A stretch of DNA of 61,354 nt, the filler included, from Deltaproteobacteria bacterium (lineage in GTDB: Bacteria; JAEEML01), in assembly GCA_016283195.1 (NCBI GenBank). It is 6 parts of 6 records of this genome, joined end to end, with 100 filler letters (N's around TTAATTAATTAA, not from the genome) between each part and the next. Parts side by side here need not be neighbours in the genome. Positions count along the whole stretch, not along the records: positions 52,878 to 57,244 come from JAEEML010000053.1; 5 more parts are not named here. One strand, written 5' to 3'. Made by a program: the position numbers and the translations under genes. Shown here one piece after another: positions 5,586-57,344 of the stretch (positions are counted from its first letter, which is position 1; the number at the start of each line of letters is the position of its first letter). The notes under the pieces were generated by a model, which made no database searches, was not told where the DNA came from, and saw nothing but the letters and a program-made list of their open reading frames with translations.

Positions 5586-5650
5586 ATGCCAAAAGCGTTT
5601 TATGGATGAAAGTGCCGATAAGTTTTTTATTCTTAAAAGAGGCAATTTAG

Positions 5651-7756: not shown

Positions 7757-7761
7757 GAGCA

Positions 7762-10364: not shown

Positions 10365-11003
10365 CTATTTCCCGGAAATAACAGATAAAATTTTGGCTAC
10401 ATAATCTGTGTTGCCGCTGATGGAGAGCTGTGAGCCCATGAGACTGGCGATATCGGTATCTTCTGGGCGGCTGATAGATAAGAGGCGCATCAGATCATAT
10501 TTTATGGTGATATAGGGGCTATTTTCGCCAGGAGCGCCGATTTCCATAGTGAGCACATGCTCATCGCCGAGATCGTCGCTAAAGCGAAAATCCACCATTG
10601 CCGGGTCGCTTAGGGCAATATTTTGCAAAAGGCTCAATTTGCCAAGGCTGGAAAGAATTTTTTTGGCGCCGTAATCGCGCCATTTTTCCAATTCACCATT
10701 ACGCTTAAAAGTGTTGTAGCGCTGAGTGATGGCGCCGTAGAGGGCATTAAAAGCCGCTCTGTCCATAGTAAAAGCGGCAATGGCCTCATCGGCTGCTCCG
10801 GCGGCGATAGTGAGCTCGCCTGCAGCCGATACTTGGGCGCTGTAAATACCGCCGCCGGTGCCTTCAAATTCCCATTCGGTTAAAATATCAATGCCCGGTT
10901 TTAGCGGAACGGCATCTTTAAAAACAGCCCAGAGTTTTGGTACTTCGCTATTCACAAAATCGGCCGGGGAAATCCGCCGGGGGAGGGAAGGCCAATCTAC
11001 CAT
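10365..11003 (-). CDS. Hypothetical protein with SCP2-like (lipid-binding) segment
   Basis: FEGTGGGIYSAQVSAAGELTIAAGAADEAIAAFTMD resembles the SCP2 motif; abuts the UbiB-family gene. Confidence 0.5.
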   Translation of the reverse strand: MVDWPSLPRRISPADFVNSEVPKLWAVFKDAVPLKPGIDILTEWEFEGTGGGIYSAQVSAAGELTIAAGAADEAIAAFTMDRAAFNALYGAITQRYNTFKRNGELEKWRDYGAKKILSSLGKLSLLQNIALSDPAMVDFRFSDDLGDEHVLTMEIGAPGENSPYITIKYDLMRLLSISRPEDTDIASLMGSQLSISGNTDYVAKILSVISGK

Positions 11004-13194: not shown

Positions 13195-14301
13195 TTATCT
13201 CCTCTGCATCTGCATAGCGTTATTGGGCATAGCGCCGTTTTTGGCCATTGTTTGCTTCATCTCATCAAGCTCGGTACTGCGTTCCAGCGCTGTTTCCTGG
13301 GAAATAATGCGCCGCTGGAAGAGCGAAAACAGGCACTGGTTCATAGTTTGCATACCTGTTAAGGCCTGGCCGACTTGCATTTGTGAATATATTTGGTGAG
13401 TCTTTTCTTCGCGGATCAGATTGCGAATAGCCGGATTGGGGATCATAATCTCGGCGGCCAGAATACGCCCGCCGCCAACTTTGGGCACCAGTTGCTGCGA
13501 GATAACCGCCTCCAGAACAAAGGAGAGCTGGGCGCGCACCTGGGGCTGCTGATGCGGCGGGAAGATATCGAGAATACGGTTTATTGTTTGCACAGCGCTG
13601 TTGGTGTGCAAGGTACCCAAACAAAGGTGGCCCGTTTCGGCAATGGCGAGAGCCGCTTCCACGGTTTCCATATCGCGCATTTCGCCGATGAGCACAATAT
13701 CGGGATCCTGCCGCAAGACATAGCGCAGAGCGTCTTTAAAGGACTTGGTATCGCTACCGACTTCGCGCTGATTGACCAGGCAGTTTTTGTGCGGATGGAG
13801 AAACTCGATAGGATCTTCAATAGTCAAAATGTGGTGATGCTGGCTCTCGTTAATGCGGTCGATAAAAGAAGCCAAAGTAGTGGTTTTACCGGAACCTGTC
13901 GGCCCGGTGACCAGAATAAGGCCGCGCGGACGAGTTGTCAGCTCAATAACCGATTTTGGCAGGCCTAAAGAGTCAAATGGCGGAATTTTAAAGGGCACCA
14001 CGCGGATAGCGGCCGCCACGGCACCGCGCTGCACAAAGATATTAGCGCGAAAACGCGAAAGATCTTTAACGCCGAAACTGAGATCGAGTTCGCTCGATTC
14101 TTCAAATTTGCGTTTTTGCTCTTCGGTCAAAATAGAGTAACAGAGCTGCCGGGTGTCGGTTGGAGTGAGTACCGGCAACTTAAGGGGCACCAATTTGCCG
14201 TCGATACGCAGTTGTGGCGGGGTGCCGGTGGTGATGTGTAAATCGGAAGCGCCATTTTTGATAATGGCTTGCAAAAGTGCATGTAAAGTATAATCAGCCA
14301 C
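13195..14301 (-). CDS. pilT: Type IV pilus retraction ATPase PilT
   Basis: Motifs GPTGSGKTTT, TIEDPIE, LRQDPD, AIRNLIRE. Confidence 0.96.
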   Translation of the reverse strand: MADYTLHALLQAIIKNGASDLHITTGTPPQLRIDGKLVPLKLPVLTPTDTRQLCYSILTEEQKRKFEESSELDLSFGVKDLSRFRANIFVQRGAVAAAIRVVPFKIPPFDSLGLPKSVIELTTRPRGLILVTGPTGSGKTTTLASFIDRINESQHHHILTIEDPIEFLHPHKNCLVNQREVGSDTKSFKDALRYVLRQDPDIVLIGEMRDMETVEAALAIAETGHLCLGTLHTNSAVQTINRILDIFPPHQQPQVRAQLSFVLEAVISQQLVPKVGGGRILAAEIMIPNPAIRNLIREEKTHQIYSQMQVGQALTGMQTMNQCLFSLFQRRIISQETALERSTELDEMKQTMAKNGAMPNNAMQMQRR

Positions 14302-14320
14302 AGTTATCTTGCCTCACAGG

Positions 14321-16030
14321 TTAATCGGCCACAGAGCAGCGCAGGACTTCTTCAACAGTTGTCATGCCCAGGCGCAATTTGTTAAGCGCAGCGGCGCGCA
14401 GTGTTTGCATGCCGTTTTGGATAGCTACCGCCTTGAGCTCGGCCGAGGAGGCGCCGTTTAAGACGGCCTCACGAATGGGATCGGAACAAACAAGAACTTC
14501 ATAAAGAGCCACACGGCCCTTGTAACCGGTATTGGAGCACTTTTCGCAGCCGCGCCCCTTATAGAGCTTGAAGGTGCCAATCTCCTCCGGCTTGATTTGG
14601 ATATCCAGGAGCGTTTGGTCGGGCACAGTTATCTCTTCTTTGCAATTTTCGCAAATGCGGCGGGCAAGACGCTGAGCCAAAATGGCGTTTAAAGCTGCGG
14701 TGATGAGGAAGGGCTCAACACCCATGTTCAAAAGACGGCTCACCGTACTTGGCGCGTCGTTGGTGTGCAAAGTAGAGAGCACCATGTGGCCGGTAAGAGC
14801 AGCTTTGATAGCAATTTCAGCTGTTTCAAAGTCACGAATCTCTCCAACCATGATGATATCGGGATCCTGCCGCAAGAAGGAGCGCAGAGCGGCGGAGAAG
14901 TTGAGGCCGATATCTTCGTGCATCTGCACCTGGTTAATACCGCCCAAGTTGAATTCCACCGGGTCTTCGGCGGTGGAAATATTTTCGGAAACTTTATTGA
15001 GCTCAGAGAGAGCCGAGTAAAGAGTAGTGGTTTTACCGGAACCGGTGGGGCCGGTAACGAGCACCATGCCGAAGGGCTTATGAATAGCCGATTTAAAGTC
15101 GCTTAGGGGCTTGGGCTCAAAGCCCAGCTTGGTCATATCGAGCTGCAAGTTGCTCTTATCGAGAAGACGGAGAACGATTTTTTCGCCAAAGAGGCAGGGC
15201 AAAACGGAGACACGGAAGTCCATATCTTTGCCGCCGCCGAATTTGAGCTTGATACGGCCATCCTGCGGCAGACGGCGCTCGGCAATGTCGAGGTTACTCA
15301 TAATTTTGATACGGCTGGTGATGGCGTTTTTGAGCTTTAAGGGCGGTGTCATCACTTCGTAAAGCACGCCATCGATGCGGTAGCGCACGCGGAAGGATTT
15401 TTCATAAGGCTCAATGTGAATATCGGAGGCGTGGCGCTTGATGGCATCCATCAAAATAAGGTTGACGAGGCGCACCACCGGGGCGTCTTCGGCTGACTTG
15501 GCGAGGTCAACGGAGTTTAGCTCCTCCTCTTCTTCGCCGACTTCGATATCTTCGTCGTTAAAGCCCTCCATCACCTCTTCATAAGCGGCGCTGCTGTCAT
15601 CGGCTTTACTACCGGCGTAATATTTATCAATAGCACTTCTGATAGCGCTTTCGGAGGCCACAACAACTTCAATATTTAAGCTGGTTTGGAACTTTAGCTC
15701 ATCTATAGCCAAAAGGTTTGAGGGATCGGCCATGGCCACGATAAGGGTGGAACCAGCTCGGTTAATAGCAATGGCGAGATGTTTTACGGCCACATCTTTG
15801 GGAATGAGCTTTACAACTTCTTCGTCTATCGGCTGCTCTTCCAGATTGATGGCCGGCACCCCGAATTTTTTGGAAATAAAGCCAGTGAGCTGCTTTTCAT
15901 CAACGAGGCCGAGCTTAACAAGAGAAGCGCCCAGGCGCCCGCCCTCTTTTTTGGCGCTTATTTGCGCTTGTTGCAATTGTTCAAGGGAAATAACGTGATC
16001 CTGTACTAATAATGTTCCTAAATGGCTCAT
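14321..16030 (-). CDS. pilB: Type IV pilus assembly ATPase PilB
   Basis: MshEN-like N-terminus, ASDIHIEP, GPTGSGKTTTLY, tetracysteine motif, GRVALYE. Confidence 0.96.
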   Translation of the reverse strand: MSHLGTLLVQDHVISLEQLQQAQISAKKEGGRLGASLVKLGLVDEKQLTGFISKKFGVPAINLEEQPIDEEVVKLIPKDVAVKHLAIAINRAGSTLIVAMADPSNLLAIDELKFQTSLNIEVVVASESAIRSAIDKYYAGSKADDSSAAYEEVMEGFNDEDIEVGEEEEELNSVDLAKSAEDAPVVRLVNLILMDAIKRHASDIHIEPYEKSFRVRYRIDGVLYEVMTPPLKLKNAITSRIKIMSNLDIAERRLPQDGRIKLKFGGGKDMDFRVSVLPCLFGEKIVLRLLDKSNLQLDMTKLGFEPKPLSDFKSAIHKPFGMVLVTGPTGSGKTTTLYSALSELNKVSENISTAEDPVEFNLGGINQVQMHEDIGLNFSAALRSFLRQDPDIIMVGEIRDFETAEIAIKAALTGHMVLSTLHTNDAPSTVSRLLNMGVEPFLITAALNAILAQRLARRICENCKEEITVPDQTLLDIQIKPEEIGTFKLYKGRGCEKCSNTGYKGRVALYEVLVCSDPIREAVLNGASSAELKAVAIQNGMQTLRAAALNKLRLGMTTVEEVLRCSVAD

Positions 16031-16098
16031 TGTCTCTCCGCGTGTAAACTGCTATGTTAACGCCAAGGGTCAAATCCTGACGATAATTACACCGCGCT

Positions 16099-16127
16099 AC
16101 TATAGAACACTGAAGGGCGCTTGTCTA
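16099..16127 (-). promoter_or_regulatory. Sigma70-like promoter for the pilB operon
   Basis: TAGACA-17 nt-TATAGT on the minus strand, about 70 nt upstream of pilB. Confidence 0.55.
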
Positions 16128-16309
16128 AAACTTATTTCTTAATAAAGTCATATTTTGTGATAAAAATCCTTTACAAGCAAGCCTGAATTACTGCTGATGA
16201 TGTGGTTGTAAATTGCCTTAAGACAGCCTTTGGCTAATGTGACCGATAAAAGCGGCAAAAAATCGATATATATAAGACTCTTTGAAAAAGATTTATTGGC
16301 AGGCTGGGC

Positions 16310-18160
16310 TCAGTCGGCAAAGACGACAAAGCCGGCAGTGTTATTAGTTGCCAGAGCGGCACAGTTAGATTGGCAAGTGCTACTGCAATCACCAACCGCT
16401 GGGGATATTGAGACAGGAATTGGGTCTGAAGAACCTATTAGTGTAATAGTTTGGCCGGAAATTTGATAAGCTCCGCCAACAAGTACAGGATTGGTAAGAT
16501 TAGGTGAGAGGGTGATTGTGCTGTCACTGGCTTTAGTGGCTCCTTTGCCTCTAAAAGCGGTTATTTTGCCTTTGCATACGCATGTGCCGCTACAGCTTGA
16601 GCCACTTGGGCTGCCACTACAATTCCAGGTTGGACATGAGCCATGAACAAAGCTGTAAGTTACTTGTCCATAGGCTTTGGGCGCGTAAATGCCATTTAAT
16701 TTAGCTTGAGAAACAGAGCTGTTCTCCAGTTCAGCTCCGGAGACGCAATTAGTGCAACTTAAATCTTTAGCTACATTGGCTGTGCCGACGGTGGCAGAGG
16801 CATAAGCGGTGGCTTTTTGTATTTTGCCGTTGCTATCAACATAAACTGGTGTAGTGCTGTCGCCGATAGCCGGGTGGCTGCTTGAGGAGCCGATAGCGGC
16901 GGCATAGCTGGCATTGGTGGCATTTGCTGCGTTGGTGGCATTGGTAGCATTAGTGGCGTTTGTAGCGTTTGTAGCACTCGTGGCATTGGTAGCGTTATCG
17001 GCATTGGTGGCTTTGCCAACCGACAGTTTAGACATAGTAACTGCCACCGGCACACCATTACTAAAATAGACCGGGTTAGAATCGCTACCGGCATTGGTAT
17101 TTAATTTGTTGGCACTTGCAGCTGTGCCGCTAATAGTGCCGCTTACTGTCATGCCGCTATTGTTAATGGTGACGAGCGGAGAGGCGCTATTGGCAGAAGC
17201 GATAGACAAAGCGCCGTCATTAGCTGTTATTACAAAGTTTTTGTCATCATCTAAATCTTCCAGCATAATTTGCGGCACGGTATCGGCAATAACGGCTTCA
17301 ACGCCTGTTTCACCGCCGGCGGCGCGTATATGTAACGGAGCTGCCGGTTTGCCGGTGCCGAGGCCCAATTTGCCGCCGTCCAAAACGGCTACAGACGGCT
17401 GCGGAGCTAATATGCCGCTGCGTTTATAGACGATAAAAAGACCGCCGTACTGGTCATAACATTTTTCGCCTTCATCTTCTTCGCTTTGAAAGCTGTTTTC
17501 ACCGCAGTTAGGGCTGCCACTATCTTTATCGCATGAACAAGCAGAAATACCGGCTGGGGCACTGGTTTCTGAGCTATCTTTATCGTAGCTAAAAACGCCG
17601 GACATATATTTACCTTTGTTGTTAATGCCTATCCGCCCGTTTTCTTCGTCGATGCTTAAAACGCTGGCACATTCCCATTCGGTTCTGGCGTCGTTATAAC
17701 GTAAAGAAGCACTGTCGCCGCAGTTGGGCAGAGCGCTATCTTGCATGGCGCTGAAGCTTAAATGCTTTGGTGTGATGCAGCCTTTACATTCAATGTTAGC
17801 ACTAATTGCGGAATACTCGGCGGCCAGAGCATAAGGAACGCTGGCAATCGGAAGGCGTGGTTCCAGCTCGGCACCGTCAATGCTGACAGCCAGCAAAAGC
17901 TGCGCGGCATCAGCCACCGCCGCAACATCAATGTTGTCGATGGTTAAGGCATATAAGCCGGCTTCAATATCAAGTTGTTCCTCTTTTTCCCCAATGATGG
18001 AATTGACCTCATTATAAATGGTGGCTTTGATGAGATGCGAGCCGTTTACCAGTTCGCCATCCTCTTTAAGCACCCCATGGTGAGTAAAAGAGAGCGGCAC
18101 GGCAGCATAAGCGGTGCCGGAGAAAAGCAGAACAAGAGCTAACATCATGAAATTGCGCAT
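16310..18160 (-). CDS. Secreted mosaic tail-fibre/adhesin-like protein
   Basis: ATG 18160 with AGGAG; signal peptide; VPLSFTHHGVL and PRLPIASVPYALAA motifs; GLGTGKP..PLHI; PVYF/PVYV segments; NAT repeats; Cys-rich C-terminus. Confidence 0.65.
   Translation of the reverse strand: MRNFMMLALVLLFSGTAYAAVPLSFTHHGVLKEDGELVNGSHLIKATIYNEVNSIIGEKEEQLDIEAGLYALTIDNIDVAAVADAAQLLLAVSIDGAELEPRLPIASVPYALAAEYSAISANIECKGCITPKHLSFSAMQDSALPNCGDSASLRYNDARTEWECASVLSIDEENGRIGINNKGKYMSGVFSYDKDSSETSAPAGISACSCDKDSGSPNCGENSFQSEEDEGEKCYDQYGGLFIVYKRSGILAPQPSVAVLDGGKLGLGTGKPAAPLHIRAAGGETGVEAVIADTVPQIMLEDLDDDKNFVITANDGALSIASANSASPLVTINNSGMTVSGTISGTAASANKLNTNAGSDSNPVYFSNGVPVAVTMSKLSVGKATNADNATNATSATNATNATNATNATNAANATNASYAAAIGSSSSHPAIGDSTTPVYVDSNGKIQKATAYASATVGTANVAKDLSCTNCVSGAELENSSVSQAKLNGIYAPKAYGQVTYSFVHGSCPTWNCSGSPSGSSCSGTCVCKGKITAFRGKGATKASDSTITLSPNLTNPVLVGGAYQISGQTITLIGSSDPIPVSISPAVGDCSSTCQSNCAALATNNTAGFVVFAD
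16911..17011 (-). repeat. Degenerate 9-bp coding tandem repeat (Asn-Ala-Thr)n
   Basis: Encodes ATNADNATNATSATNATNATNATNATNAANATNA. Confidence 0.85.
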
Positions 18161-18424
18161 ATTATTTCTCCTTTTAAAGCATTGCCTATAAGTTGTGGCA
18201 ACCATTTGCACTCAGTAGTCAGGCTTATGACAAAACCACATTGAGCCGGCAAAAAGTTGCAAGCTCAATAAAAACGCAAATTATATAATAGTGCAAATCG
18301 GCGGCCGGATAAAGGGAAAACATTGGTGTGTGCTTCTTTTCGGCCCCATATAATTGCCAAAGTGTTATAAGATGTTTAAAAACAAAACAGCCATGCCCAG
18401 ATGGGCACTTCATAGAGGTTTATT

Positions 18425-19036
18425 GTGCGTACCTATATTGATCTTTTTCTCACTTTTGCCAAAGTTGGAGTCACCACCTTTGGCGGCGGCTACGCCATGT
18501 TGCCCATTTTGGAGCGCGAGGTGGTGGAAAACAAAAAATGGGCAACAACCGGCGAGCTTAGCGACTATTTTGCCATCGGCCAATGCACTCCTGGCATTAT
18601 TGCAGTAAATACCGCCACTTTTATCGGTAGCAAACAAAAGGGTATTTTGGGCGCCGTCTTTGCTACTTTGGGCCTGGCCTGCCCCGGCATTATTATCATC
18701 TCACTTTTGGCCGCCGGCCTCAGTCATTTTAACGAAATGAGCGCCGTGGGACATGCTTTTAACGGCCTTAGAGCCGCTATTTGCGTGCTCATCATCAATG
18801 CGGTAATAAAGCTCGGTAAATCTTCTTTAAAAGATGCTTTCTCTCTTTTTCTCTTTTTAGCTGTCCTGGCCGCCGCCCTCTTTTTTAAAATTTCCCCGGC
18901 TCTTTTGGTGCTTAGCTGCGGCTTTTTGGGCCTCTTAGTGGGGCTGTTTAAGGGCCGAAGAAGCGCCAGCAGCAGTAGCGGGGTTAGTGGGGAGAGTGGA
19001 GCCGAAAACGCTGCCCAGGAGGCCAAAAAGTTATGA
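18425..19036 (+). CDS. Short-chain chromate transporter (CHR), first half
   Basis: Motifs TFGGGYAM and GQCTPG. Confidence 0.9.
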   Translation: MRTYIDLFLTFAKVGVTTFGGGYAMLPILEREVVENKKWATTGELSDYFAIGQCTPGIIAVNTATFIGSKQKGILGAVFATLGLACPGIIIISLLAAGLSHFNEMSAVGHAFNGLRAAICVLIINAVIKLGKSSLKDAFSLFLFLAVLAAALFFKISPALLVLSCGFLGLLVGLFKGRRSASSSSGVSGESGAENAAQEAKKL

Positions 19037-19614
19037 TTTTTCTTCGTCTTTTTTATGAATTTTTTATAGTGGGGCTTTTCTCGGTGGGCGGCGGCCTCTC
19101 CACCATCCCTTTTTTGGCCAATATGGGGGAAAATACCGGCTGGTTTACTCTGTCCGATCTCACCAATATGATTGCCGTCAGCGAATCGACCCCCGGCCCC
19201 TTAGGCATCAATATGGCCACCTATGTGGGCTTTAGTGTGGCCGGAGCCGGCGGAGCGCTGGCGGCGGTTTTGGGCCTTATGGCTCCATCGGTGATTATAG
19301 TTTTAATAATTGCCACTTTTCTTAATAAATTCCGCAATAATCACCATGTGGAGGCCGTTTTTCACGGTTTGCGCCCGGCTTCCACCGCTCTTATTGCCGC
19401 CGCCGCTTTTAGCGTCATTACCATGTCGCTAATTACCATAGAGCGCCCCGCCGGCGGGCCATTCTGGGCGATATCGGGGCTCACTTGGCACTTACCGGCC
19501 ATTATTTTGGCTGGGGCTATTTTGCTGCTCACTCACCTGCCAAAAGTCAAAAAGCTGCACCCGGTGGTCTGGCTCGCCTTCTCGGCGGCTATGGGGATAA
19601 TTTTTGAGATCTAA
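19033..19614 (+). CDS. Short-chain chromate transporter (CHR), second half
   Basis: Motifs SVGGGLS and SESTPGP; ATGA overlap with the first half. Confidence 0.9.
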   Translation: MIFLRLFYEFFIVGLFSVGGGLSTIPFLANMGENTGWFTLSDLTNMIAVSESTPGPLGINMATYVGFSVAGAGGALAAVLGLMAPSVIIVLIIATFLNKFRNNHHVEAVFHGLRPASTALIAAAAFSVITMSLITIERPAGGPFWAISGLTWHLPAIILAGAILLLTHLPKVKKLHPVVWLAFSAAMGIIFEI

Positions 19615-19626
19615 CAAAAGATATAA

Positions 19627-21201
19627 CTAGCGGTTTTTCTTTTGATTCATATAATACTTATGCCGAAAAATGGCGGCTTTGGCCAAAAGGTCTCCATCTA
19701 AAGTCATATTGGGAAAACCGGCCGGGTTACAATTATAACACTTGCCGCAGGGGGCGGGGTTTTCTTCGCCGAGAGCCCGCTGCATAAAGGCCATGAGGCA
19801 GCCCTTTTCTCTGATATAGCGACTCATTTCCAGCACCTCGGCTTCTCTTATCGCCTTAAGGCGCTTCTGATATTTTTTGTCCAGGCGGAAGCTGTCAAAA
19901 GTAGGACTTTTTTGCCAGGTAAAGGGCCCGCTGGCCAAAATCGGCGCTCCGGGCGCGGCGGCCAGGTAGTTTAAAAGTTCGCCGCTTTTTTCTTTGGAAA
20001 TACCTGATAAATCGGCAATATCATCTGAGGGCAGCGCTTCATCCACTTCCTCAAAAACATGCAAAATATTATAAATTTCTTCATCTTTTGGCCCGCTATT
20101 CTCAATGAAAAAAGCGGCTAAATCGTCATCCTCCTCTCCTTCTGCCAAAAGGCCGAAGGAGAGCTGGCCGCCGCGCCCGGCCCGGCCCACCTGCTGATAA
20201 TAGTGCACCACCGAGGCCGGGCGCTGATAATGGAGGACAAAGGCTAAATCCGGCTTATCAAAGCCCATGCCGAGGGCCACCGTGGAGACGAGAGCTTTTA
20301 GCTTATTCTGCTGCAAAAGGGCCTCGAGCTCCTCTTTGCTATACGGGTCCGGCCCTTTTTGCAATTTGGCGTGATAGGCTTCGGCAGCAAAGCCAGAGCT
20401 CTTGAGCCAGGCGGCAATCATGGCGCATTCACTGGTAGTTTGCGCATATATGAGGCCGCTCCCGGGGATTTGCTCCAACATGCTGGCCAGCCAGGCCAGG
20501 CGGCTTTCGCGGCTCATGAGGCGCAGATTCATAAGCCGCAGATTTTTGCGCACTAGCGAGCCTCTAAGCACTTTTAAATTATCGCCCAGCTGCTCCTTTA
20601 TATCTAAAAGCACCCGCTTATTGGCTGTCGCCGTGGTGGCCAAAATAGGCACACTGGCCGGTAAATTTGGCAGAATTTCCCTGATGCGCCGATATTCCGG
20701 GCGAAATTCGTGCCCCCAATCGGAGATGCAATGGGCTTCGTCGATAACCAAAAGGCCAATATTATAATTGAGTAATTCCAGGAAATTTTCCTTAAAAAGC
20801 CGGTTATTAAGCCGCTCCGGCGCCACAATCAGCACATCGAGGCGGTTCTCTTTTATAGCGCTAAAAATCGCCTCCCACTCCGGCTTATTGGCACTATTTA
20901 TAAAAGCGGCTTTGAGCCCCAGCCGCTCAGCCGCCTCCTGCTGATTGCGCATAAGCGCCAAAAGGGGAGAAATGAGGAGCGTGGGCCCGGCGCCTTTGGC
21001 CCGGCGCAGCTTAGTGGAGACAAAATAGACCATGCTCTTGCCCCAGCCGGTCGCTTGAATAACCAAAAGGCGCCCGCCTTTAAGGAGAGTCTCAATAGCC
21101 ACATCCTGGCCATCGCGAAACTCCGCCTCTGGGTTATTCATGGCCTGGCGGAAACAGCTTAGCGGGGTCAATTCGCCAATATTACATGGTATTTTAGCCA
21201 T
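19627..21201 (-). CDS. RecQ-family ATP-dependent DNA helicase
   Basis: Motifs ATGWGKS, DEAHCISDWGHEFRP, GMGFDKPD, YYQQVGRAGR, C-terminal CGKCYNC. Confidence 0.92.
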   Translation of the reverse strand: MAKIPCNIGELTPLSCFRQAMNNPEAEFRDGQDVAIETLLKGGRLLVIQATGWGKSMVYFVSTKLRRAKGAGPTLLISPLLALMRNQQEAAERLGLKAAFINSANKPEWEAIFSAIKENRLDVLIVAPERLNNRLFKENFLELLNYNIGLLVIDEAHCISDWGHEFRPEYRRIREILPNLPASVPILATTATANKRVLLDIKEQLGDNLKVLRGSLVRKNLRLMNLRLMSRESRLAWLASMLEQIPGSGLIYAQTTSECAMIAAWLKSSGFAAEAYHAKLQKGPDPYSKEELEALLQQNKLKALVSTVALGMGFDKPDLAFVLHYQRPASVVHYYQQVGRAGRGGQLSFGLLAEGEEDDDLAAFFIENSGPKDEEIYNILHVFEEVDEALPSDDIADLSGISKEKSGELLNYLAAAPGAPILASGPFTWQKSPTFDSFRLDKKYQKRLKAIREAEVLEMSRYIREKGCLMAFMQRALGEENPAPCGKCYNCNPAGFPNMTLDGDLLAKAAIFRHKYYMNQKKNR

Positions 21202-21609: not shown

Positions 21610-21709
21610 NNNNNNNNNNNNNNNNNNNNNNNNNNNNNNNNNNNNNNNNNNNNTTAATTAATTAANNNNNNNNNNNNNNNNNNNNNNNNNNNNNNNNNNN
21701 NNNNNNNNN
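21610..21709. other. Artificial contig spacer
   Basis: 44 N + TTAATTAATTAA + 44 N. Confidence 0.98.
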
Positions 21710-40964: not shown

Positions 40965-41064
40965 NNNNNNNNNNNNNNNNNNNNNNNNNNNNNNNNNNNN
41001 NNNNNNNNTTAATTAATTAANNNNNNNNNNNNNNNNNNNNNNNNNNNNNNNNNNNNNNNNNNNN
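40965..41064. other. Artificial contig spacer
   Basis: 44 N + TTAATTAATTAA + 44 N. Confidence 0.98.
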
Positions 41065-48322: not shown

Positions 48323-49738
48323 TTAGATGCTAACAAAATCGTTATTAATGAGATAAGCAGCCAGTTCGTGGGAGATAAAATTCAAAATACCCACCTCTTC
48401 GGGATTATAAGGGCCGCTGGCTGTGCGATTTATGAGCTCAATAACGCCAAAAACACGGCCGTTTTTCTGCGCCGGGCTGCAAAGAATTGTGCGATTATCA
48501 TAAGAAAGACTTTTGGATATTTCGTTATAAAAACGATTATCTGCCTGCACATTGCCCACAGCCAGGGTAACGCCGTCGAGGGCCGAAAGCCCAACAATTC
48601 CCACACCCATGGGTACACGGAATTTCATCACTTCATGCGCTTTGGGGCCGCGAGCGGCAGCAAAATAAAGATCATGCTGATTTATATCGGCAATAAAGAC
48701 CGAACCTGATTCTGAGGGGATATACTTTAGTGCCGCATCAAGGAAGAAATAACAGGCACTCTCAAGATCGGTAGCCGCAAAATAAACATCTTGCATCTCT
48801 TCTAAAAGCTGGGCGTAAATTTCGGCTGTTAACTCTCCGGCTTGGACAACTTGCGGAGCCGGGGGCACAAATTTTTCAGCCGGCTTAAGCGGCTGTTGTT
48901 TAACAATCTTTTGCGGCGCGGCACTCGGTGACGGCGGAGGAGGATCCGGCAAAACCATTTGGCCGGCATAAACCTCAGGAGCCGGCGCAGGAGATGGCAC
49001 GGGCGCAGGTGCAGGAGTAGGAGGAACAGGGGGAGCAGAAACAGGGGCCACCTGAGCAACCACTCTGGCATTTAAAGAGCTGGCAGCAACCGGTGGGGCA
49101 ATATGCGCATCGGCAAGTTGCTTATTGATAAGCGTATTGGCATCTACCGGGGCCTTTAAAATAGCTGTTGCCATTACAGGAGCCGGAGCAGGCACAGGCG
49201 CTGGAGCAGGCACAGGGGCCGGAGCGGGCACAGGAGCCGGAGCGGGCACAGGAGCCGGAGCGGGTACAGGAGCCGGAGCGGGCACAGGAGCCGGAGCGAG
49301 TACAGGTGCTGGAGCTGGTACAGGAGCTGGAGCAGGTATAGGTGCCGGAGCTGGCACAGGAGCCGGAGCGGGTACAGGTGCCGGAGCAGGCACAGGCGCT
49401 GGAGCAGGTATAGGTGCCGGAGCTGGCACAGGAGCCGGAGCTGGCACAGGCGCTGGAGCAGGTATAGGTGCCGGAGTGGGCACAGGTGCCGGAGCTACAG
49501 GCTGCGGAGCTTCATCTTCCGGCAATTCGCGAATTCTAATGGTGTAATCTTTACCTGGCTCGGTAATATACATCCCGTCATCGCGAAAATCACATTCGAC
49601 ATTTTTAATATCGGTAATATTGCCAAGCTTAGCCAAGCCAACTTTCATGGCTTGCAACATGGTATTAGCTTTTATTTTAGCAGTAATATTGAAGCCTGTT
49701 GTCTCATTGGCCGGAATAAAGACCTCAAAATTGGCCAT
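48323..49738 (-). CDS. GAF-domain protein with a long Pro/Ala linker
   Basis: C-terminal GAF ([25 protein letters not shown]); (PAPAPV)n linker. Confidence 0.85.
49176..49499 (-). repeat. 18-bp coding tandem repeat, (PAPAPV/I)n, about 18 units
   Basis: Repeating acaggagccggagcgggc-type units on the plus strand. Confidence 0.92.
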
Positions 49739-49915: not shown

Positions 49916-50015
49916 NNNNNNNNNNNNNNNNNNNNNNNNNNNNNNNNNNNNNNNNNNNNTTAATTAATTAANNNNNNNNNNNNNNNNNNNNNNNNNNNNN
50001 NNNNNNNNNNNNNNN
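49916..50015. other. Artificial contig spacer
   Basis: 44 N + TTAATTAATTAA + 44 N. Confidence 0.98.
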
Positions 50016-52777: not shown

Positions 52778-52877
52778 NNNNNNNNNNNNNNNNNNNNNNN
52801 NNNNNNNNNNNNNNNNNNNNNTTAATTAATTAANNNNNNNNNNNNNNNNNNNNNNNNNNNNNNNNNNNNNNNNNNNN
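52778..52877. other. Artificial contig spacer
   Basis: 44 N + TTAATTAATTAA + 44 N. Confidence 0.98.
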
Positions 52878-54244
52878 ACATCGGCAAAGCCTTTGCCAGT
52901 CGTCATCTCTTTGATAATTGTGTATTTATTTAGCGCATATATGTAAGAGAGGTAAATAGCGCTCTGGAGAGCATCTTCGTTATTGTAACTTCTATTGCTG
53001 GTTACATGAATATGGCTTTCATCGAGAGCCCTAGCCACCGCTTCGGCATTACCGGCGAGAGTTTCTGCTAATAGCTCGCGCGATGATTCAATAATATGGT
53101 TAGTTACCGCGTAATCGTCATTGGCTTCGATAGCGTTAAACCACTCCTGGCGCACCTCTTTATTAGGTATGCGGCAAGTGCCATCTTCACGGTTATAAGC
53201 CAGGTACCCCACATGAATGAGGTAAGTAAAAGCGTCGCCCCGGGTAGAAAAATCGGTCATGGTATTCATGTAGCGGGTGACATTTACCGGCACATTTTCC
53301 CCGGCCAGCATTTTTATGACATCATCCTTCATGCCGGCAAAATTGGCCTTAATACGGTCACTTATCACCGCATAAGTGGAAGTTTTGCCCCAATAATCGT
53401 CAAAAATGCCCTCCTCCATGGAGCGCACTACCGACTCGGGGTTATAAATCTCCAGACCATGCTGCTTATAGCCGTCGTACCAGCGGCGGCACTCGGCAAA
53501 ATCCATATTATATTTGGCGCAGAGCTCTTTTACCTCCGGCTCGGTAAAGCCGATAAATTCTGCCAGCGGCCCGCCGTCCAAAATGGTAAATTCCCTAAAA
53601 TTATTGAGCTTCGACTGCACTCTGTCGCGCACGATGGGGAGGATGCCGGTTAAGTAAGCAAAGTGGATAGCCGGGCGCAGGGTGTTACTCTTAAAGAGGC
53701 TATTTAAAAGGTTAAGGTACTGATTAAAAAGCTCTTCCGGTATTTTTTCGCGCACCAAAACATCGTATTCGTCCATAATTATGACAAATTGCTCGCCGGT
53801 TTTGTCAAAGACTTTTTGGAGGCACTGGGCAATGGAGTCATCATCACTAAAAGTAATAGTAGAAAATTGCTCGGCAAATTCTGTGCGAATATTCTGATGG
53901 AGCTTTAAAATGAGCTTTGGTAATTCCAGCGTAGCGCGAAATTCGCTATTGACATCAATATGAATAACATTGAATTTATTGAGATTCTTCTCAAAATCCG
54001 GCGTCCTTGAAATCTTAAATTGGCTAAAGAGCTCTCTTGAATCACAGCCTTTGGAGTAGTAAGCCGCCAGCATATTGCCGGCAATGGTTTTGCCAAAGCG
54101 GCGCGGGCGGGAGACGCAGAGATATTTGTTGCTACTGCGGGCCAGTTTTTCAATAGCGGGAATTAGCATGGTTTTATCCACATAGATCTCCGCCGCCACT
54201 GTTTCCTTAAAGTTATAATTATTAGGGTTCAGATAGATACTCAT
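52878..54244 (-). CDS. AAA-ATPase-like + PD-(D/E)XK nuclease family protein (3' truncated)
   Basis: Motifs YVDKT, SRPRRFGKT, DEYD, TGILP, WYDGY, YNP, IPNKEV, GKGFAD. Confidence 0.92.
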
Positions 54245-54358
54245 AAAAGCCTCCCGGCGGCGCAGTATAGCATAGGCGCCGGTGCCCGGCTAGGGCCTTT
54301 AGGGTGAGAGCTATGACTTGAGCGGTAAAAGTGCCTGCTTTGGCCACTTCCGGCGGGG

Positions 54359-56689
54359 TTAGTCTTTTATGCAACGCACCGAGCGACCGTCCCACTCATG
54401 GCTGCTGCGCACTTCCACGCTGCTATCCACAATTAGGTGGAGATAGCTGCAGCAGGAGCGGTTACTGTTTTTCGTACTGGACCAGAAGCTGGCGCTCGCC
54501 CCGAAAAGCAAGTAGCTTCTTCCGATGTAGGAGTATTCCCCGGCCGGGAGCGCCCCAAAGCCATAGTTATCTTTTCCTGCCCAGCTGCTATGTTTGAGAC
54601 TATCAGCACCTTCTTTTCCTGCTCCAACATAGGCCAATAGTTTTTCAAAATCTGTTTTTGTTGGCAAATGCCAGCCACTGGGACACACCTTTTTAGTATC
54701 AAACCATGAGTATAAGCAGCCATAATTTCTAATAAATCTTGAATCTTTATCAGTATTGGCTTTGCAGTTAATACTATCTTTGAAGATACCACTATCAGTG
54801 ATATACCTCATATTTTCTGCCATCCAGGTTTGATTGCCGATTTTTACAGTTTTATAGGTATTGCCATCGCGCTGGTCGGTAAATGAGCCGTATTCCACCT
54901 TATTCTCAGCTACTGCCTGGGAGGCAGCATTATTGTCTTGAGACTGAACAGGCTCCTTAGTAGCTGTTTTGGAGGCATCATTGCTAAGCGGCGCTTTTTT
55001 CTGCTCCTCATTATTTATCTCTTTTATGCAGCGTACCGAAATGCCGTCACCCTTCCAGTATTCGTGCACACCAGCTTTGCTATCCACAATTAGGCTGTAT
55101 GCGTAGATTTCATTGCTTTCCGTACTGGACCAGAAGCCAGAGCCCGACCCGAAATACTTGTAGCCGCCGTTGGAGTAGTTGCCGGCCGGGAGCGCCGAAA
55201 AGCCATAGTTATCTTTTCCTGCCCAGCTGCTATGTTTGAGATCATCAGCCCCTTCTTTTCCTACTCCAACATAGGCTAATAGTCTTTCAAAATCTGTTTT
55301 TGTTGGTAAATGCCAGCCACTGGGGCACACCTTTTTAGCATCATCCCATGAGTATAAGCAGCCATAATTACTAATAAATCTTGAATCAGCATCAGTGTCG
55401 GCTTTGCAGGTAACATTCTTACTGATATATCTCATATTTTCTGCCATCCAGGTTTGCTTGCCGATTTTTACAGTTTTATAGGTATTGTCATCGCGCTGGT
55501 CGGTAAATGAGTCATATTCCACCTTATTCTCAGCTACTGCCTGGGAGGCAGCATTGCTAAGCGGCATTTCTTCCTGCTCCTCATTATTTATCTCTTTTAT
55601 GCAACGCACCGATAAATAGCTGGCACTTTTACCGCTATTGACTATGGTTTTGCTCGCATCGACATAGAGGCCATAAGCATTCTTTTTATTTTGTTCCGTG
55701 CTGGACCAAAAATAAGCTGCCACCTCGCCCTCTGAACAGCCTTTTTTCTCACATTTGCCGGCCGGGAGCGCTCCAAAACCGGATACATTTTTCCCTCTGT
55801 CCCATTTTCTGTGTCTTAAATTATCCGAACCTGTTTCCCCTTTGCCAACGCTGGTTAAAAGGCGCTCAAATTCTACTCTTGAGGGGAGGTGCCAGCCATT
55901 GGGGCAGACTTTTTTAGCATCGGCAAAATTATATAAATATCCGTATTCATTGGGCTTTTGTGTTGATTTGAAATCTATTCCATCAGCAATATATTTCATA
56001 TTCTCGGCCAGCCAGATTTGCTGTCCGATTTTTACTGTCTTATAAGTATTGCCATCGCGCTGATCGATAAAAGTATTTAGAGTGTTCTCTTCTTCGGCGT
56101 CCTTAATACAACGCACCGAAAGAAAATCTGTACCCTGGCTGTTGCAGCTCTTGGCCGAAACGCTGCCTGGCCCTATCGTCATGGAGTAGGCGTCATTATT
56201 ACTCTCTTTGCTGCACTTGGTAACTGTCCAAAAATAGGCCATAGAGCCCAAAGAAGCAAAGCTATCCGCTTTAAAAGCACCGGCCGGCAGAGCCGAAAAA
56301 CCGGAGCCGTTTTTGCCGTCTTTCCAGCTACTGTCCCGGAGATTTTCAGAGCCTTCCTGCCCTTCGCCGACATGGACCAAAAGGCGGCTAAATTCCACTT
56401 TCGAAGGCAAATGCCAGCCGGCGGGGCACACTTTTTGAGCATCGGCCCAGCTATAGAGGCAGCCGTAATTCTTTACGGAAGCACCATGTTTGGCATCCGA
56501 GCGGCAAGCAATATCATCGGCAATATACTTCATATTTTCGGCCAGCCAGACTTGGTTACCTATTTGCACCGTCTTATATTTAGTGCCGTCGCGCTGGTCG
56601 GTAACCGAGCCATATTCCTGAGCCAAAGCTGTAGAAGTCGTAAAGATCATAAAAGATAAAAACACAGCTTTTAAATAAGCAGCAGACAT
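54359..56689 (-). CDS. Secreted protein with four tandem FISUMP domains
   Basis: Signal peptide; four copies of D.RD...YKTV.IG.Q.W.AEN...CP.GWHLP...ALPAG...FW...SVRCIK. Confidence 0.95.
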   Translation of the reverse strand: MSAAYLKAVFLSFMIFTTSTALAQEYGSVTDQRDGTKYKTVQIGNQVWLAENMKYIADDIACRSDAKHGASVKNYGCLYSWADAQKVCPAGWHLPSKVEFSRLLVHVGEGQEGSENLRDSSWKDGKNGSGFSALPAGAFKADSFASLGSMAYFWTVTKCSKESNNDAYSMTIGPGSVSAKSCNSQGTDFLSVRCIKDAEEENTLNTFIDQRDGNTYKTVKIGQQIWLAENMKYIADGIDFKSTQKPNEYGYLYNFADAKKVCPNGWHLPSRVEFERLLTSVGKGETGSDNLRHRKWDRGKNVSGFGALPAGKCEKKGCSEGEVAAYFWSSTEQNKKNAYGLYVDASKTIVNSGKSASYLSVRCIKEINNEEQEEMPLSNAASQAVAENKVEYDSFTDQRDDNTYKTVKIGKQTWMAENMRYISKNVTCKADTDADSRFISNYGCLYSWDDAKKVCPSGWHLPTKTDFERLLAYVGVGKEGADDLKHSSWAGKDNYGFSALPAGNYSNGGYKYFGSGSGFWSSTESNEIYAYSLIVDSKAGVHEYWKGDGISVRCIKEINNEEQKKAPLSNDASKTATKEPVQSQDNNAASQAVAENKVEYGSFTDQRDGNTYKTVKIGNQTWMAENMRYITDSGIFKDSINCKANTDKDSRFIRNYGCLYSWFDTKKVCPSGWHLPTKTDFEKLLAYVGAGKEGADSLKHSSWAGKDNYGFGALPAGEYSYIGRSYLLFGASASFWSSTKNSNRSCCSYLHLIVDSSVEVRSSHEWDGRSVRCIKD
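54560..55555 (-). repeat. Recent internal duplication of FISUMP domains 3 and 4
   Basis: About 54560-54930 is near-identical to about 55205-55555 at DNA level. Confidence 0.88.
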
Positions 56690-56774
56690 ATAACCTCCAA
56701 CAAAATACCAACCGGTCTATTTAACTCTAGGTGGCGGTAACAACAAGCGGCCTTGCAACAGCCTATAACCGAAA

Positions 56775-57244
56775 CTAGCAGTTAATTTCAAATTCCTCCA
56801 TCAGACACTCGTGGGTCTTGCTCTTTTCATCGTAATTCACGCCGATAAAGAGCAATTTGCCCTGATAATGCGCAAGTGAGGAGAAATATTTCTTGGCTCT
56901 AATCTGGGTGAGCGCCGTTTCCGCGTTGCTGTTTCTTTTAAGCTCAATAATCATGGCCGGAAGGCCCGCTACAAAGGGGATAAAGACCACATCGGCAAAG
57001 CCTTTGCCAGTCGTCATCTCTTTGATAATTGTGTATTTATTTAGCGCATATATGTAAGAGAGGTAGATGGCGCTCTGGAGTGCATCTTCGTTATTGTAAC
57101 TCCGGTTACTGGTTACATGAATATGGCTTTCATCGAGAGCTCGCGCCACCGCTTCGGCATTTCCCGCGAGAGTTTCTTTTAAAAGCTCTTCGGAAGCCTC
57201 TATAATACGCGTAGTTACTTCATAATCGGGCAAAATGGAAACAG
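56775..57244 (-). CDS. Second AAA/PD-(D/E)XK paralog, C-terminal nuclease part (5' truncated)
   Basis: GKGFADVVFIP...IIELK...ALTQI; 56989-57180 nearly repeats 52878-53070. Confidence 0.9.
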
Positions 57245-57344
57245 NNNNNNNNNNNNNNNNNNNNNNNNNNNNNNNNNNNNNNNNNNNNTTAATTAATTAA
57301 NNNNNNNNNNNNNNNNNNNNNNNNNNNNNNNNNNNNNNNNNNNN
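57245..57344. other. Artificial contig spacer
   Basis: 44 N + TTAATTAATTAA + 44 N. Confidence 0.98.

Follow-up and report, generated by a model that had tools for sequence, protein, structure and literature searches.

Proposed duplication of FISUMP domains with divergent tips in a predicted secreted protein of a Deltaproteobacteria bacterium

DGR targets of the FISUMP family and the architecture of the locus

Proteins of the DUF1566/Fib_succ_major family are targets of DGRs, and the parts of Wu 2018 (PMC5758913) used here place them in category d / CLec2, with Legionella LdtA as a named example of the class. FISUMP-family targets also occur in the sections of Ye 2014 (PMC4159848) and PMC11661182 available to us, so that the use of FISUMP as a DGR target, named in a sequence-only reading of this DNA, is borne out by all three sources, as far as those sections go. 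The supplement to Wu 2018 (PMC5758913) has, in the excerpt used, an Ornithobacterium entry with a 190-nt variable region (VR) at the gene end and two Fib_succ_major targets at distances of 319 kb and 1,452 kb to the reverse transcriptase (RT). Internal VRs are rare but on record in the same portions of Wu 2018 (PMC5758913). Targets with several VRs are likewise rare on record: a single CLec1 target has three VRs in these portions of Wu 2018 (PMC5758913), and seven targets have two or three in the part of PMC11661182 at hand.

The window, which is the whole 61,354-nt stretch of DNA analysed, is composed of six contigs linked by N44-TTAATTAATTAA-N44. The contig considered here spans 52878..57244 (4,367 bp), and all of the features described below are on the minus strand. 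A gene at 54359..56689 has a 776-aa product with a probable signal peptide and four FISUMP (C-type-lectin-like) domains but without a C-terminal anchor. PF09603 matches the protein in four stretches (E 5e-106; 353 bits against a cut-off of 33.9), as does TIGR02145 (548.5 bits against a curated cut-off of 41.65), and PF07603 matches it more weakly; CLec2 DGR variable proteins belong to the same domain superfamily (PF09603, weaker PF07603). The N-terminus is hydrophobic and signal-like, conserved cysteines are seen in the alignment, and the translation suggests a probable Sec signal peptide at aa 1-23 (56621..56689) with a hydrophobic core up to ALA/QE and no lipobox cysteine. With four profile-matched domains and this putative signal peptide, the product looks like the multivalent secreted binder that had been proposed for it.

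Domain 1 (aa 23-200, 56090..56623) and domain 2 (aa 201-369, 55583..56089) are followed by a pair of high-identity repeats with a period of 627 nt, which is above the 500-nt limit of Tandem Repeats Finder, and that program accordingly reported no repeat. Copy A (aa 360-502, 55184..55612) is made up of the end of domain 2 (SVRCIKEINNEEQ), a short linker and the domain 3 scaffold. Copy B (aa 551-716, 54542..55039) consists of the end of domain 3, a linker that is 17 codons longer than that of copy A, and the domain 4 scaffold. Each repeat leads into a variable tip that is framed in both domains by ALPAG and SVRC. The domain 3 tip (aa 503-550, 55040..55183) is internal to the protein, rich in NNC codons and has a GC content of 52-55%. 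The domain 4 tip (aa 717-769, 54383..54541) is also NNC-rich, with a GC content of 55-57%, and lies at the protein end, where it is followed by SVRCIKD and the stop codon; it is longer than the domain 3 tip by five codons, in two indels. The domain 3 scaffold contains a second variable patch (aa 423-434, 55388..55423), and the corresponding patch of domain 4 (aa 631-648, 54746..54799) has a 6-codon insertion.

As in CLec2 DGR variable proteins, the variable stretch comprises the last ~50-60 codons, ends in a constant S-V-R-C and is rich in C-ending codons for Y, S, G and N. The tips match a true CLec2 VR in both position and length (190 nt at the gene end). The window protein differs from the CLec2 proteins in that its copies differ from each other by indels and third positions, its share of K/E/Q/M/W is ordinary, and the window has no template repeat (TR) or RT.

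An AlphaFold2 model of domain 4 (pLDDT 85, pTM 0.82) is least confident in the patch at aa 631-648 (pLDDT 55-75). Its best Foldseek match is the C-terminal domain of Legionella pneumophila Lcl (8q4e; probability 0.99), which is a weak match (E 0.036; TM 0.34/0.45; 12% identity). Next in rank are dozens of C-type-lectin-like domains, together with 4eps, a Bacteroides fimbrial protein that is superimposed on TvpA in the portion of Ye 2014 (PMC4159848) used here. There are no Foldseek matches at E<=0.001, and no PDB chain matched the sequence at E<=1. The C-type-lectin-like fold previously assigned to these domains is in line with the kind of structure that ranks best against the model, although the resemblance itself is weak.

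The gene is flanked by two paralogous AAA-ATPase_like genes, which have 92% amino acid identity across 79 common residues. The downstream neighbor (52878..54244) is truncated by the contig end, as is the upstream one (56775..57233), of which the C-terminal PDDEXK_9 part is present. A terminator and promoter scan gave nothing informative after the 776-aa protein gene, and the Rfam scan of the window returned one tRNA and nothing else.

Divergence and codon composition of domains 3 and 4

Domains 3 and 4 had been described as near-identical DNA with last ~60 codons that diverge sharply, and a MAFFT DNA alignment agrees with this description. The 369 aligned nucleotides before the ALPAG motif are 92.1% identical, compared to 66.0% for the 144 aligned nucleotides after it (Fisher p = 2.9e-12), and three anchors quoted in the sequence-only reading have the same sequence in both copies. 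Amino acid identity is 85% for the scaffolds and 0.43 for the tips.

We tentatively favor, at somewhat less than an even chance, a scenario in which lectin-like binding modules were recently duplicated in tandem, with scaffolds that are alike and ligand-binding tips whose history is older or faster. According to this account, the secreted protein would display four C-type-lectin-like (FISUMP) binding modules, and domains 3 and 4 would be a lineage-specific tandem duplication in which the preceding linker was copied along. The 92% identity of the scaffolds may reflect either a recent duplication or gene conversion that holds them alike. The last ~50-60 codons and one upstream loop would presumably constitute the ligand-binding surface, with a history that is separate from that of the scaffold and either older or faster. 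The tips would have diverged through small indels and through point changes that affect every codon position, and selection for distinct specificities may have kept them different.

Several details fit better with such ordinary divergence of duplicated domains than with DGR activity, and a DGR reading of the two tips is not established. Codon pairs that differ at positions 1 and 2 and keep position 3 had been listed as a DGR-like signature; the listed pairs are present, but the pattern does not extend to the whole segment, in which 19/17/13 differences fall on codon positions 1/2/3 of the DNA alignment (p = 0.20 for sparing of position 3) and 18/17/17 on those of a protein-guided alignment. 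The accompanying caveat about some third-position changes and small indels was apt, since there are 13-17 position-3 differences and indels of 6 and 9 nt. The tip has a dS of 0.43 and a dN/dS of 1.18, compared to 0.12 and 0.68 for the scaffold, and among codons for conserved residues, purely synonymous differences affect 4 of 21 in the tip compared to 8 of 123 in the scaffold (p = 0.076). The patch at aa 423-434, ~70 codons upstream of the tip, accounts for 7 of the 20 scaffold amino acid differences (p = 0.0008) in addition to its 6-codon indel. We counted this patch, which is outside any plausible VR, in favor of duplication, along with the occurrence of differences at all codon positions. 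Transversions, which are commoner in the tip (transition:transversion counts of 25:27, compared to 24:12 in the scaffold), were counted against it.

The tips could instead be relic VRs. Under this explanation, which we regard as doubtful but worth serious weight, adenine mutagenesis from an AAC-rich template once wrote the tips or the ancestor that they share, after which the retroelement disappeared or the gene moved away, and the tips drifted through ordinary substitutions and indels. The place and length of the variable stretch, like those of a true CLec2 VR, and the standing of the family as a known DGR target speak for this history, and so does a drop in adenine, which makes up 24-26% of the tip compared to 34% of the scaffold. 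Against it, there are 13-17 third-position differences in 48 codons, compared to ~9% per codon in the scaffold, and it would therefore still require that the scaffolds be homogenized.

Codon usage is one argument for a DGR past. The ratio NNC/(NNC+NNT) changes from 0.45 upstream to 0.69 in the tip for domain 3 and from 0.42 to 0.79 for domain 4, and no such shift occurs in domain 1, domain 2 or the other FISUMP gene of the window. When the expectation is drawn from codon-family usage in the window itself (22 ORFs, 11,032 codons), the domain 3 tip has 22 C-ending codons where 15.3 are expected (p = 0.009), and the domain 4 tip has 26 where 17.3 are expected (p = 0.001). The variable segments had been called NNC-rich and unlike the DNA just upstream, and these counts support a local excess of that kind. 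It is specific to C rather than to G+C (third letters per 48 codons: C 23-26, G 9-10, T 6-10, A 6), and is found in variable codons (29, with an expectation of 20.4; p = 0.002) as well as in codons for conserved residues. Relative to 148 other FISUMP domains, it ranks at the 95th to 99th percentile or higher. GC-biased gene conversion was rejected as the source of the codon shift, since G-ending codons show no increase.

The NNC excess is the one feature that the duplication account does not predict. The C-rich third positions may be a mark of ancestry in an AAC-templated (DGR) variable region, and to that extent the codons of the tips hint at DGR origins. However, the two excesses may represent one inherited event rather than two independent ones. 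The amino acid repertoire at the variable tip sites is ordinary, which also argues against a relic: K/E/Q/M/W make up 12 of 54 residues (22%), no different from ordinary FISUMP pairs (16.5% of 28,702, p = 0.27) and unlike 12 DGR-like pairs (41 of 644, 6.4%, p = 0.0003). Composition alone cannot decide between a DGR and ordinary divergence.

The altered codon usage extends across the whole tip, conserved-residue codons included, and is accompanied by a step up in GC content, which is 33-43% for the scaffold and 52-57% for the tip. Both observations would also be explained if the tips had been swapped in by recombination from FISUMP paralogues or from foreign copies with other codon usage, with the conserved ALPAG and SVRC anchors as the bounds of the exchange. 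These anchors are common even to domain 2, and FISUMP genes are highly paralogous, with 17 to 119 copies per Fibrobacteres genome save for one genome with none, according to the part of PMC4704652 used here. We nevertheless find such an exchange highly unlikely. A donor was not found, the tip of the window's other FISUMP gene is unrelated, no shorter protein among 5.8 billion clustered proteins is >48% identical to domain 4, and there is no full-length relative with domains 3 and 4.

Template repeats and reverse transcriptases

A DGR-type RT is usually accompanied by an accessory gene and is, as a rule, near its target. The window was reported to lack an RT and a TR, and every search of its 61 kb concurs. 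No third copy of the tips was found by blastn with a word size of 7 or by an adenine-tolerant scan of both strands, which does recover the TR of a control DGR locus (L062). RVT_1 matched none of the 112 ORFs of at least 110 aa, and phmmer with the L062 RT as the query found no match. Since the gene lies on a contig of just 4.4 kb and the window consists of six contigs, this absence says little about the genome. The small portion of the genome seen, only 61 kb, was counted against duplication, as were the documented remote targets of FISUMP type.

If a TR and an RT elsewhere in the genome now rewrite both tips, then one of these active VRs would be internal to the protein. The compositional evidence is the same as for a relic, the Ornithobacterium Fib_succ_major targets (319 kb and 1,452 kb from their RT) provide a precedent for remote action, targets with two or three VRs, some of them internal, are on record, and the shortness of the contig could hide the other components. 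We consider it very unlikely, however, that both tips are under active rewriting. They differ in length by 6 and 9 nt, their third positions are not spared, their residue repertoire is ordinary, no TR or RT occurs across the six contigs, and the 90% cluster of the protein has one member from one contig and therefore no variants on record. Domain 2 is also at odds with it, since this domain has the same anchors and is undiversified.

The two tips also constrain what a template could look like. When each is treated as the template of the other, A accounts for 18 and 15 of the 52 mismatches, compared to 14 of 17 in the L062 control; neither tip, judged from these mismatches, can be the template for the other. 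A single TR shared by both tips would need to be 50% A with 13 of 48 codons prone to become stops, which makes a common template seem implausible and would require two separate templates if a DGR is active. The bona fide L062 DGR has a TR 0.7 kb from its VR and an adjacent RT, and this TR is 35% A with 0 of 29 stop-prone codons. Its TR and VR also differ by one-codon indels.

The IMH is located 3' of a DGR variable region and is often followed by a hairpin. The sequence 3' of either tip does not form a DNA fold that exceeds shuffled sequences in stability (z = -0.80 and +0.83).

Other candidates were considered and set aside. The A-rich tip of domain 2 has mismatches with domains 3 and 4 beyond its adenines when compared by eye, and the adenine-tolerant scan was empty for it. 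A self-blastn screen for adenine-biased repeats in the window and 75 related loci gave two hits, the L062 DGR and a window repeat (49373-49495 versus 49175-49297) in which 11 of 13 mismatches fall on one base; the latter is a low-complexity PAPAPV coding repeat and not a DGR. Another locus (L066) has a weak RT-like ORF (E 6e-5, 227 aa) with no repeat within 5500-10500. A tblastn search for phage comparators led to two unannotated 735-kb uncultured phage records with 30% identity, which are useless for DGR comparison.

Relatives and the family-wide pattern

The host appears to lie outside Fibrobacterota and Bacteroidota, as its EF-G shares only 52% identity with that of the nearest relatives that have a name, namely MAGs of Myxococcota and Deltaproteobacteria. 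The closest relative of the 776-aa protein is 70% identical and is without domains 3 and 4, for which there is no orthologue in the nearest relatives. Domain 1 shares 92% scaffold and 83% tip amino acid identity with an orthologue (P0002), and the domain 2 tip is 94% identical to that of the same protein. The 5' anchor (17 nt) and the 3' anchor (20 nt) of domains 3 and 4 are also present in domain 2, and the conservation of the domain 2 tip in spite of these anchors was counted for duplication. A search for related loci with the whole protein returned 75 loci with a best segment identity of 45%, and orthologous DNA is therefore lacking among them. The best match to domain 4 among shorter proteins, in 5.8 billion clustered proteins, is 48% identical; with no closer relative, the ancestry that a relic DGR would imply cannot be traced.

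The FISUMP (TIGR02145) paralogues of Fibrobacterota and Bacteroidota are also multi-domain, secreted proteins with conserved cysteines, and their tips are always much more divergent than their scaffolds. Over 467 within-protein domain pairs from 235 proteins, mean identity is 57% for scaffolds and 23% for tips. Regression over FISUMP pairs predicts a tip identity of 0.37 at a scaffold identity of 0.85, and 0.43 is seen in domains 3 and 4. This nearness to the family regression was counted for duplication. If no DGR is involved, the window protein is a case for caution, because FISUMP tips outpace their scaffolds and duplicated domains can consequently mimic DGR targets.

The NNC excess sets the window pair apart from ordinary paralogues. 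At three other, independent MAG loci (L006, L030 and L049), seven domains that have a high-scaffold/low-tip partner show a median NNC excess of +0.19, compared to -0.02 in 141 other domains (p = 0.0002), and the excess in the tips of domains 3 and 4 is likewise absent from these 141 ordinary domains. The recurrence of the excess with high-scaffold/low-tip pairs at these loci adds to the case for relic VRs, and it suggests that one shared mechanism operates across the class. As a group, such pairs combine an NNC excess with K/E/Q/M/W depletion, yet they have no template in the same locus, as is true for all 202 FISUMP domain ends of the 75 loci and the window.

These observations can be joined into a broader interpretation, which we think quite unlikely. 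Domains 3 and 4 would contain two VRs, an internal and a terminal one, that a trans-acting DGR diversifies in a poorly sampled lineage, and tandem FISUMP arrays with nearly identical scaffolds and hypervariable, AAC-repertoire tips would form a large unrecognized class of multi-VR targets. P0011, a Fibrobacter isolate protein in which as many as four domains are of this kind, and the three MAG loci would be further examples. The templates would be far away, or else the tips would be diversified by a mechanism other than a DGR. If a DGR does write both tips of the window protein, then this protein would be a multivalent binder in which several lectin-like heads, including an internal one, are diversified independently and driven remotely. 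The excerpts of the literature available to us contain no description of hypervariable tips in tandem FISUMP arrays.

The array protein P0011 (Fibrobacter sp. UWH1) resembles the window pair in having tandem domains with near-identical scaffolds and linkers and with tips that are 40-52% identical. It differs in that its scaffolds are 100% identical across 111 residues, compared to 85% identity in the window pair, and in that K/E/Q/M/W make up 2-3% of its variable residues rather than 22%. A tblastn search of the 75 loci with 12 array proteins, P0011 among them, found no match of at least 80%. High-scaffold/low-tip arrays elsewhere, P0011 among them, have cleaner DGR-like signatures than the window protein, and FISUMP arrays in Fibrobacter and Bacteroidota with identical scaffolds, clean AAC-type tips and no nearby template may matter more than the window case. 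Across the high-scaffold/low-tip pairs as a group, the variable positions are dominated by Tyr, Asn, Ser, Asp and Gly.

Divergent tips on near-identical FISUMP domains

The ORF at 54359..56689 (-) encodes a 776-residue protein with four Fib_succ_major stretches (Pfam, E = 5e-106), four TIGR02145 stretches (NCBIfam, 548 bits against a cut-off of 41.65) and an additional, weaker Pfam match to Lcl_C. The translation, judged by eye, begins with what reads as a putative Sec signal peptide, and the fourth domain ends where the protein ends. AlphaFold2 gives a confident model of domain 4 (pLDDT 85, pTM 0.82). The top Foldseek match of this model is the C-terminal domain of Legionella Lcl, with weak scores (best E 0.036, TM 0.34/0.45), and many C-type-lectin-like domains and 4eps rank next, also weakly. 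No solved DGR variable protein is among the 50 Foldseek matches listed, and a PDB sequence search returned no match.

The DNA of domains 3 and 4 is 92.1% identical over 369 aligned nucleotides up to the ALPAG motif (the scaffold) and 66.0% identical over the next 144 (p = 2.9e-12), as the sequence-only reading had described. The divergent tips occupy 55040-55183 (-) in domain 3 (residues 503-550) and 54383-54541 (-) in domain 4 (residues 717-769). This contrast is genuine and not random. The unit of high identity extends back through the linker into the final codons of the preceding domain. Three anchor sequences quoted in that reading are identical between the two domains, and the small indels that it mentioned amount to one of 6 nt and one of 9 nt. 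Its proposal that third codon positions are kept does not hold overall: differences at positions 1, 2 and 3 number 19/17/13, 18/17/17 or 19/17/17, varying with the alignment.

Of the 20 amino-acid differences between the scaffolds, 7 cluster in a second variable patch at residues 423-434 (p = 0.0008), which also has a 6-codon indel. About 70 codons separate this patch from the tip downstream, with only seven amino-acid changes in between, and the patch is the least confident region of the AlphaFold2 model. Between the two domains dS is 0.43 in the tip and 0.12 in the scaffold, and purely synonymous changes affect 4 of 21 tip codons and 8 of 123 scaffold codons (p = 0.076). Synonymous divergence thus appears higher in the tip, consistent with the tip being older or with gene conversion having homogenised the scaffold. 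Ordinary evolution of duplicate domains is the likeliest reading of this pair, at a little under an even chance. The scaffolds would have been held alike by recent duplication or gene conversion, and the binding surface would be older or faster-evolving.

The tips are rich in C-ending codons, as had also been noticed. NNC codons make up 0.45 of NNY codons in the scaffold of domain 3 and 0.69 in its tip; for domain 4 the shares are 0.42 and 0.79. The excess persists after correction for codon-family usage in the window (p = 0.009 and p = 0.001). It is present in both variable and conserved-residue codons and is specific to C, with no rise in G-ending codons. The share is unchanged in domains 1 and 2 and in a second, single-domain FISUMP gene of 233 aa and ordinary codon usage on a different contig (44470-45171 (+)). 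Exchange of tips as cassettes with paralogues is very unlikely; the tip of this second gene is unrelated to tips 3 and 4.

The FISUMP ORF lies on a contig of 4,367 bp (52878..57244) and is flanked on both sides by truncated AAA-ATPase_like/PDDEXK_9 paralogues (52878-54244 and 56775-57233, both (-)) that share 92% identity over 79 overlapping residues. The window joins six contigs of 21.6, 19.3, 8.9, 2.8, 4.4 and 4.0 kb (GC 46-50%) through five N44-TTAATTAATTAA-N44 linkers (21610-21709, 40965-41064, 49916-50015, 52778-52877 and 57245-57344), so neighbourhood across linkers is meaningless. An ORF at a contig start (57375-58055 (+)) has a weak, below-cut-off match (37 bits against 52) to the Rpn family of recombination-promoting nucleases or putative transposases; this ORF fits a pattern of contigs breaking at repeated mobile genes. 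The nearest named relatives of the EF-G on another contig (33652-35748 (+)) come from Myxococcota and Deltaproteobacteria MAGs and share only 52% identity with it, and therefore either the source is a poorly sampled lineage or this EF-G is a divergent paralogue.

Search for a template and reverse transcriptase

A bona fide DGR occurs at 15538-18955 of L062, a related locus from a Paludibacteraceae MAG. It comprises a target ORF (15538..16920) with a weak Lcl_C match and a VR at about 16807-16913, an AAC-rich TR at about 17550-17656 that shows one-codon indels and 17 mismatches, 14 of them at A, and an RVT_1 RT ORF (17747..18955). Upstream, at a distance of 2.3 to 6.5 kb, are two FISUMP genes. 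AAA-ATPase_like/PDDEXK_9 genes with 50% identity to those of the window stand on both sides of the complete cassette (13388-14971 and 18985-20586). This family appears in only 3 of the 75 related loci, all from the same MAG, and its presence beside both the FISUMP gene and this DGR may be coincidence or may mark a mobile context.

No RT or TR was found in the window, in agreement with the sequence-only reading. With blastn at word size 7, none of the four tips turns up a third time there. An adenine-tolerant scan of 60-nt windows, requiring a match of at least 85-90% at the non-A positions of a candidate template and at least 5 mismatches at A, recovers the true TR of L062 as a positive control, with matches at 31 of 33 non-A positions and 15 mismatches at A. 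The scan detects no template for any tip on either strand of the 61 kb, and no template match within the same locus for any of 202 FISUMP domain ends (75 loci and the window). None of 112 stop-to-stop ORFs of at least 110 aa in the window matches RVT_1, and phmmer with the L062 RT finds no match there. The 90% cluster of the 776-aa protein has one member, and among 5.8 billion clustered proteins the best shorter match to domain 4 reaches 48% identity.

Tips 3 and 4 cannot be templates for each other: with either one taken as the template, A is the mismatched base in 18 and 15 of 52 differences, versus 14 of 17 in L062. The ORF at 48323..49738, whose product has 471 aa and a C-terminal GAF domain, contains a long PAPAPV-type proline/alanine repeat (49142-49530 (-)). 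Two 123-nt copies within it show 13 differences, of which 11 involve one base, and this low-complexity coding repeat mimics a DGR TR/VR pair in an automatic screen.

Weighing a possible DGR origin of the tips

The tips had been proposed to be DGR-like variable regions. A remote or extinct DGR is possible, and it is the sole reading that predicts the excess of C-ending codons. Such an excess is uncommon: the NNC shift of 148 other FISUMP domains has a median of -0.01, a 95th percentile of +0.20 and a 99th of +0.31, compared with +0.24 and +0.37 for domains 3 and 4. It recurs in three unrelated MAG loci, where 7 domains with a high-scaffold/low-tip partner have a median shift of +0.19 versus -0.02 in 141 others (p = 0.0002). 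Passages of PMC5758913, PMC4159848 and PMC11661182 record the FISUMP family as a DGR target class, which counts towards such an origin. In the PMC5758913 supplement, the Ornithobacterium entry lists a Fib_succ_major target whose gene ends in a 190-nt VR, and two targets at distances of 319 and 1,452 kb from the RT, a precedent for remote targets. Passages of PMC5758913 and PMC11661182 describe targets that carry two or three VRs, internal ones among them.

In its simplest form, with one template rewriting both tips, a DGR origin does not fit their indels, residue repertoire, third positions or implied template. A single TR with adenine at every differing site would be 50% A with 13 of 48 codons stop-prone, whereas the real TR of L062 is 35% A with none of 29. 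K, E, Q, M and W, which AAC-type codons cannot yield, account for 12 of the 54 variable residues (22%) in the domain 3/4 pair, similar to the 16.5% of ordinary FISUMP pairs (n = 28,702, p = 0.27) but unlike the 6.4% (41/644) of 12 other pairs in which scaffold identity is 0.8 or higher and tip identity 0.6 or lower (p = 0.0003). Domain 2 carries the 17-nt 5' anchor of domain 3 and the 20-nt 3' anchor of domain 4, yet it shares 94% tip identity with the orthologue P0002 (83% for domain 1), so anything homing on such anchors spared domain 2. The patch at residues 423-434 is out of reach for a DGR variable region, and no stable structure was found in the DNA 3' of either tip. Small indels are by themselves no bar to a DGR, since one-codon indels separate the true TR and VR of L062. 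On balance, it is possible but rather doubtful that tips 3 and 4 are relic variable regions, and quite improbable that an active DGR with a remote template is rewriting them.

Tandem FISUMP arrays in other genomes

Across 467 within-protein pairs from 511 near-complete domains of 235 proteins, mean identity is 23% in the tip versus 57% in the scaffold. Regression predicts a tip identity of 0.37 at a scaffold identity of 0.85; the domain 3/4 pair has 0.43. Scaffold identity reaches at least 0.8 in 14 pairs, 13 of them with tip identity of at most 0.52 and one (in protein P0027) with identical tips. The extreme case is P0011 (1008 aa; Fibrobacter sp. UWH1 according to its source), in which three domains have scaffolds 100% identical over 111 residues and tips 40-52% identical, with K/E/Q/M/W at 2-3% of variable positions. 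Together with P0051, P0004, P0102, P0108, P0139 and P0044, it forms a group of tandem-domain proteins with scaffolds 81-100% and tips 29-52% identical, whose variable positions are mostly Y/N/S/D/G (K/E/Q/M/W 2-12%). Judged from their protein sequences, P0011-type arrays look like the product of adenine mutagenesis at several regions in one protein.

Neighbouring genes or domains in L049 (8806-13700, three tandem FISUMP genes), L006 (9949-11332) and L030 have scaffolds 74-87% and tips 51-63% identical, with an NNC excess in the tips. No template was found on the 19.9-kb contig of L049, where runs of codons such as CTC/TAC/GGC vary at positions 1 and 2 while the third base stays C or T. This general pattern across FISUMP arrays is a better lead than the domain 3/4 case. 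LR756501.1 and LR756503.1, 735-kb unannotated records of uncultured phage, also encode a FISUMP-like domain (171807-172268) with 30% identity to domain 4.
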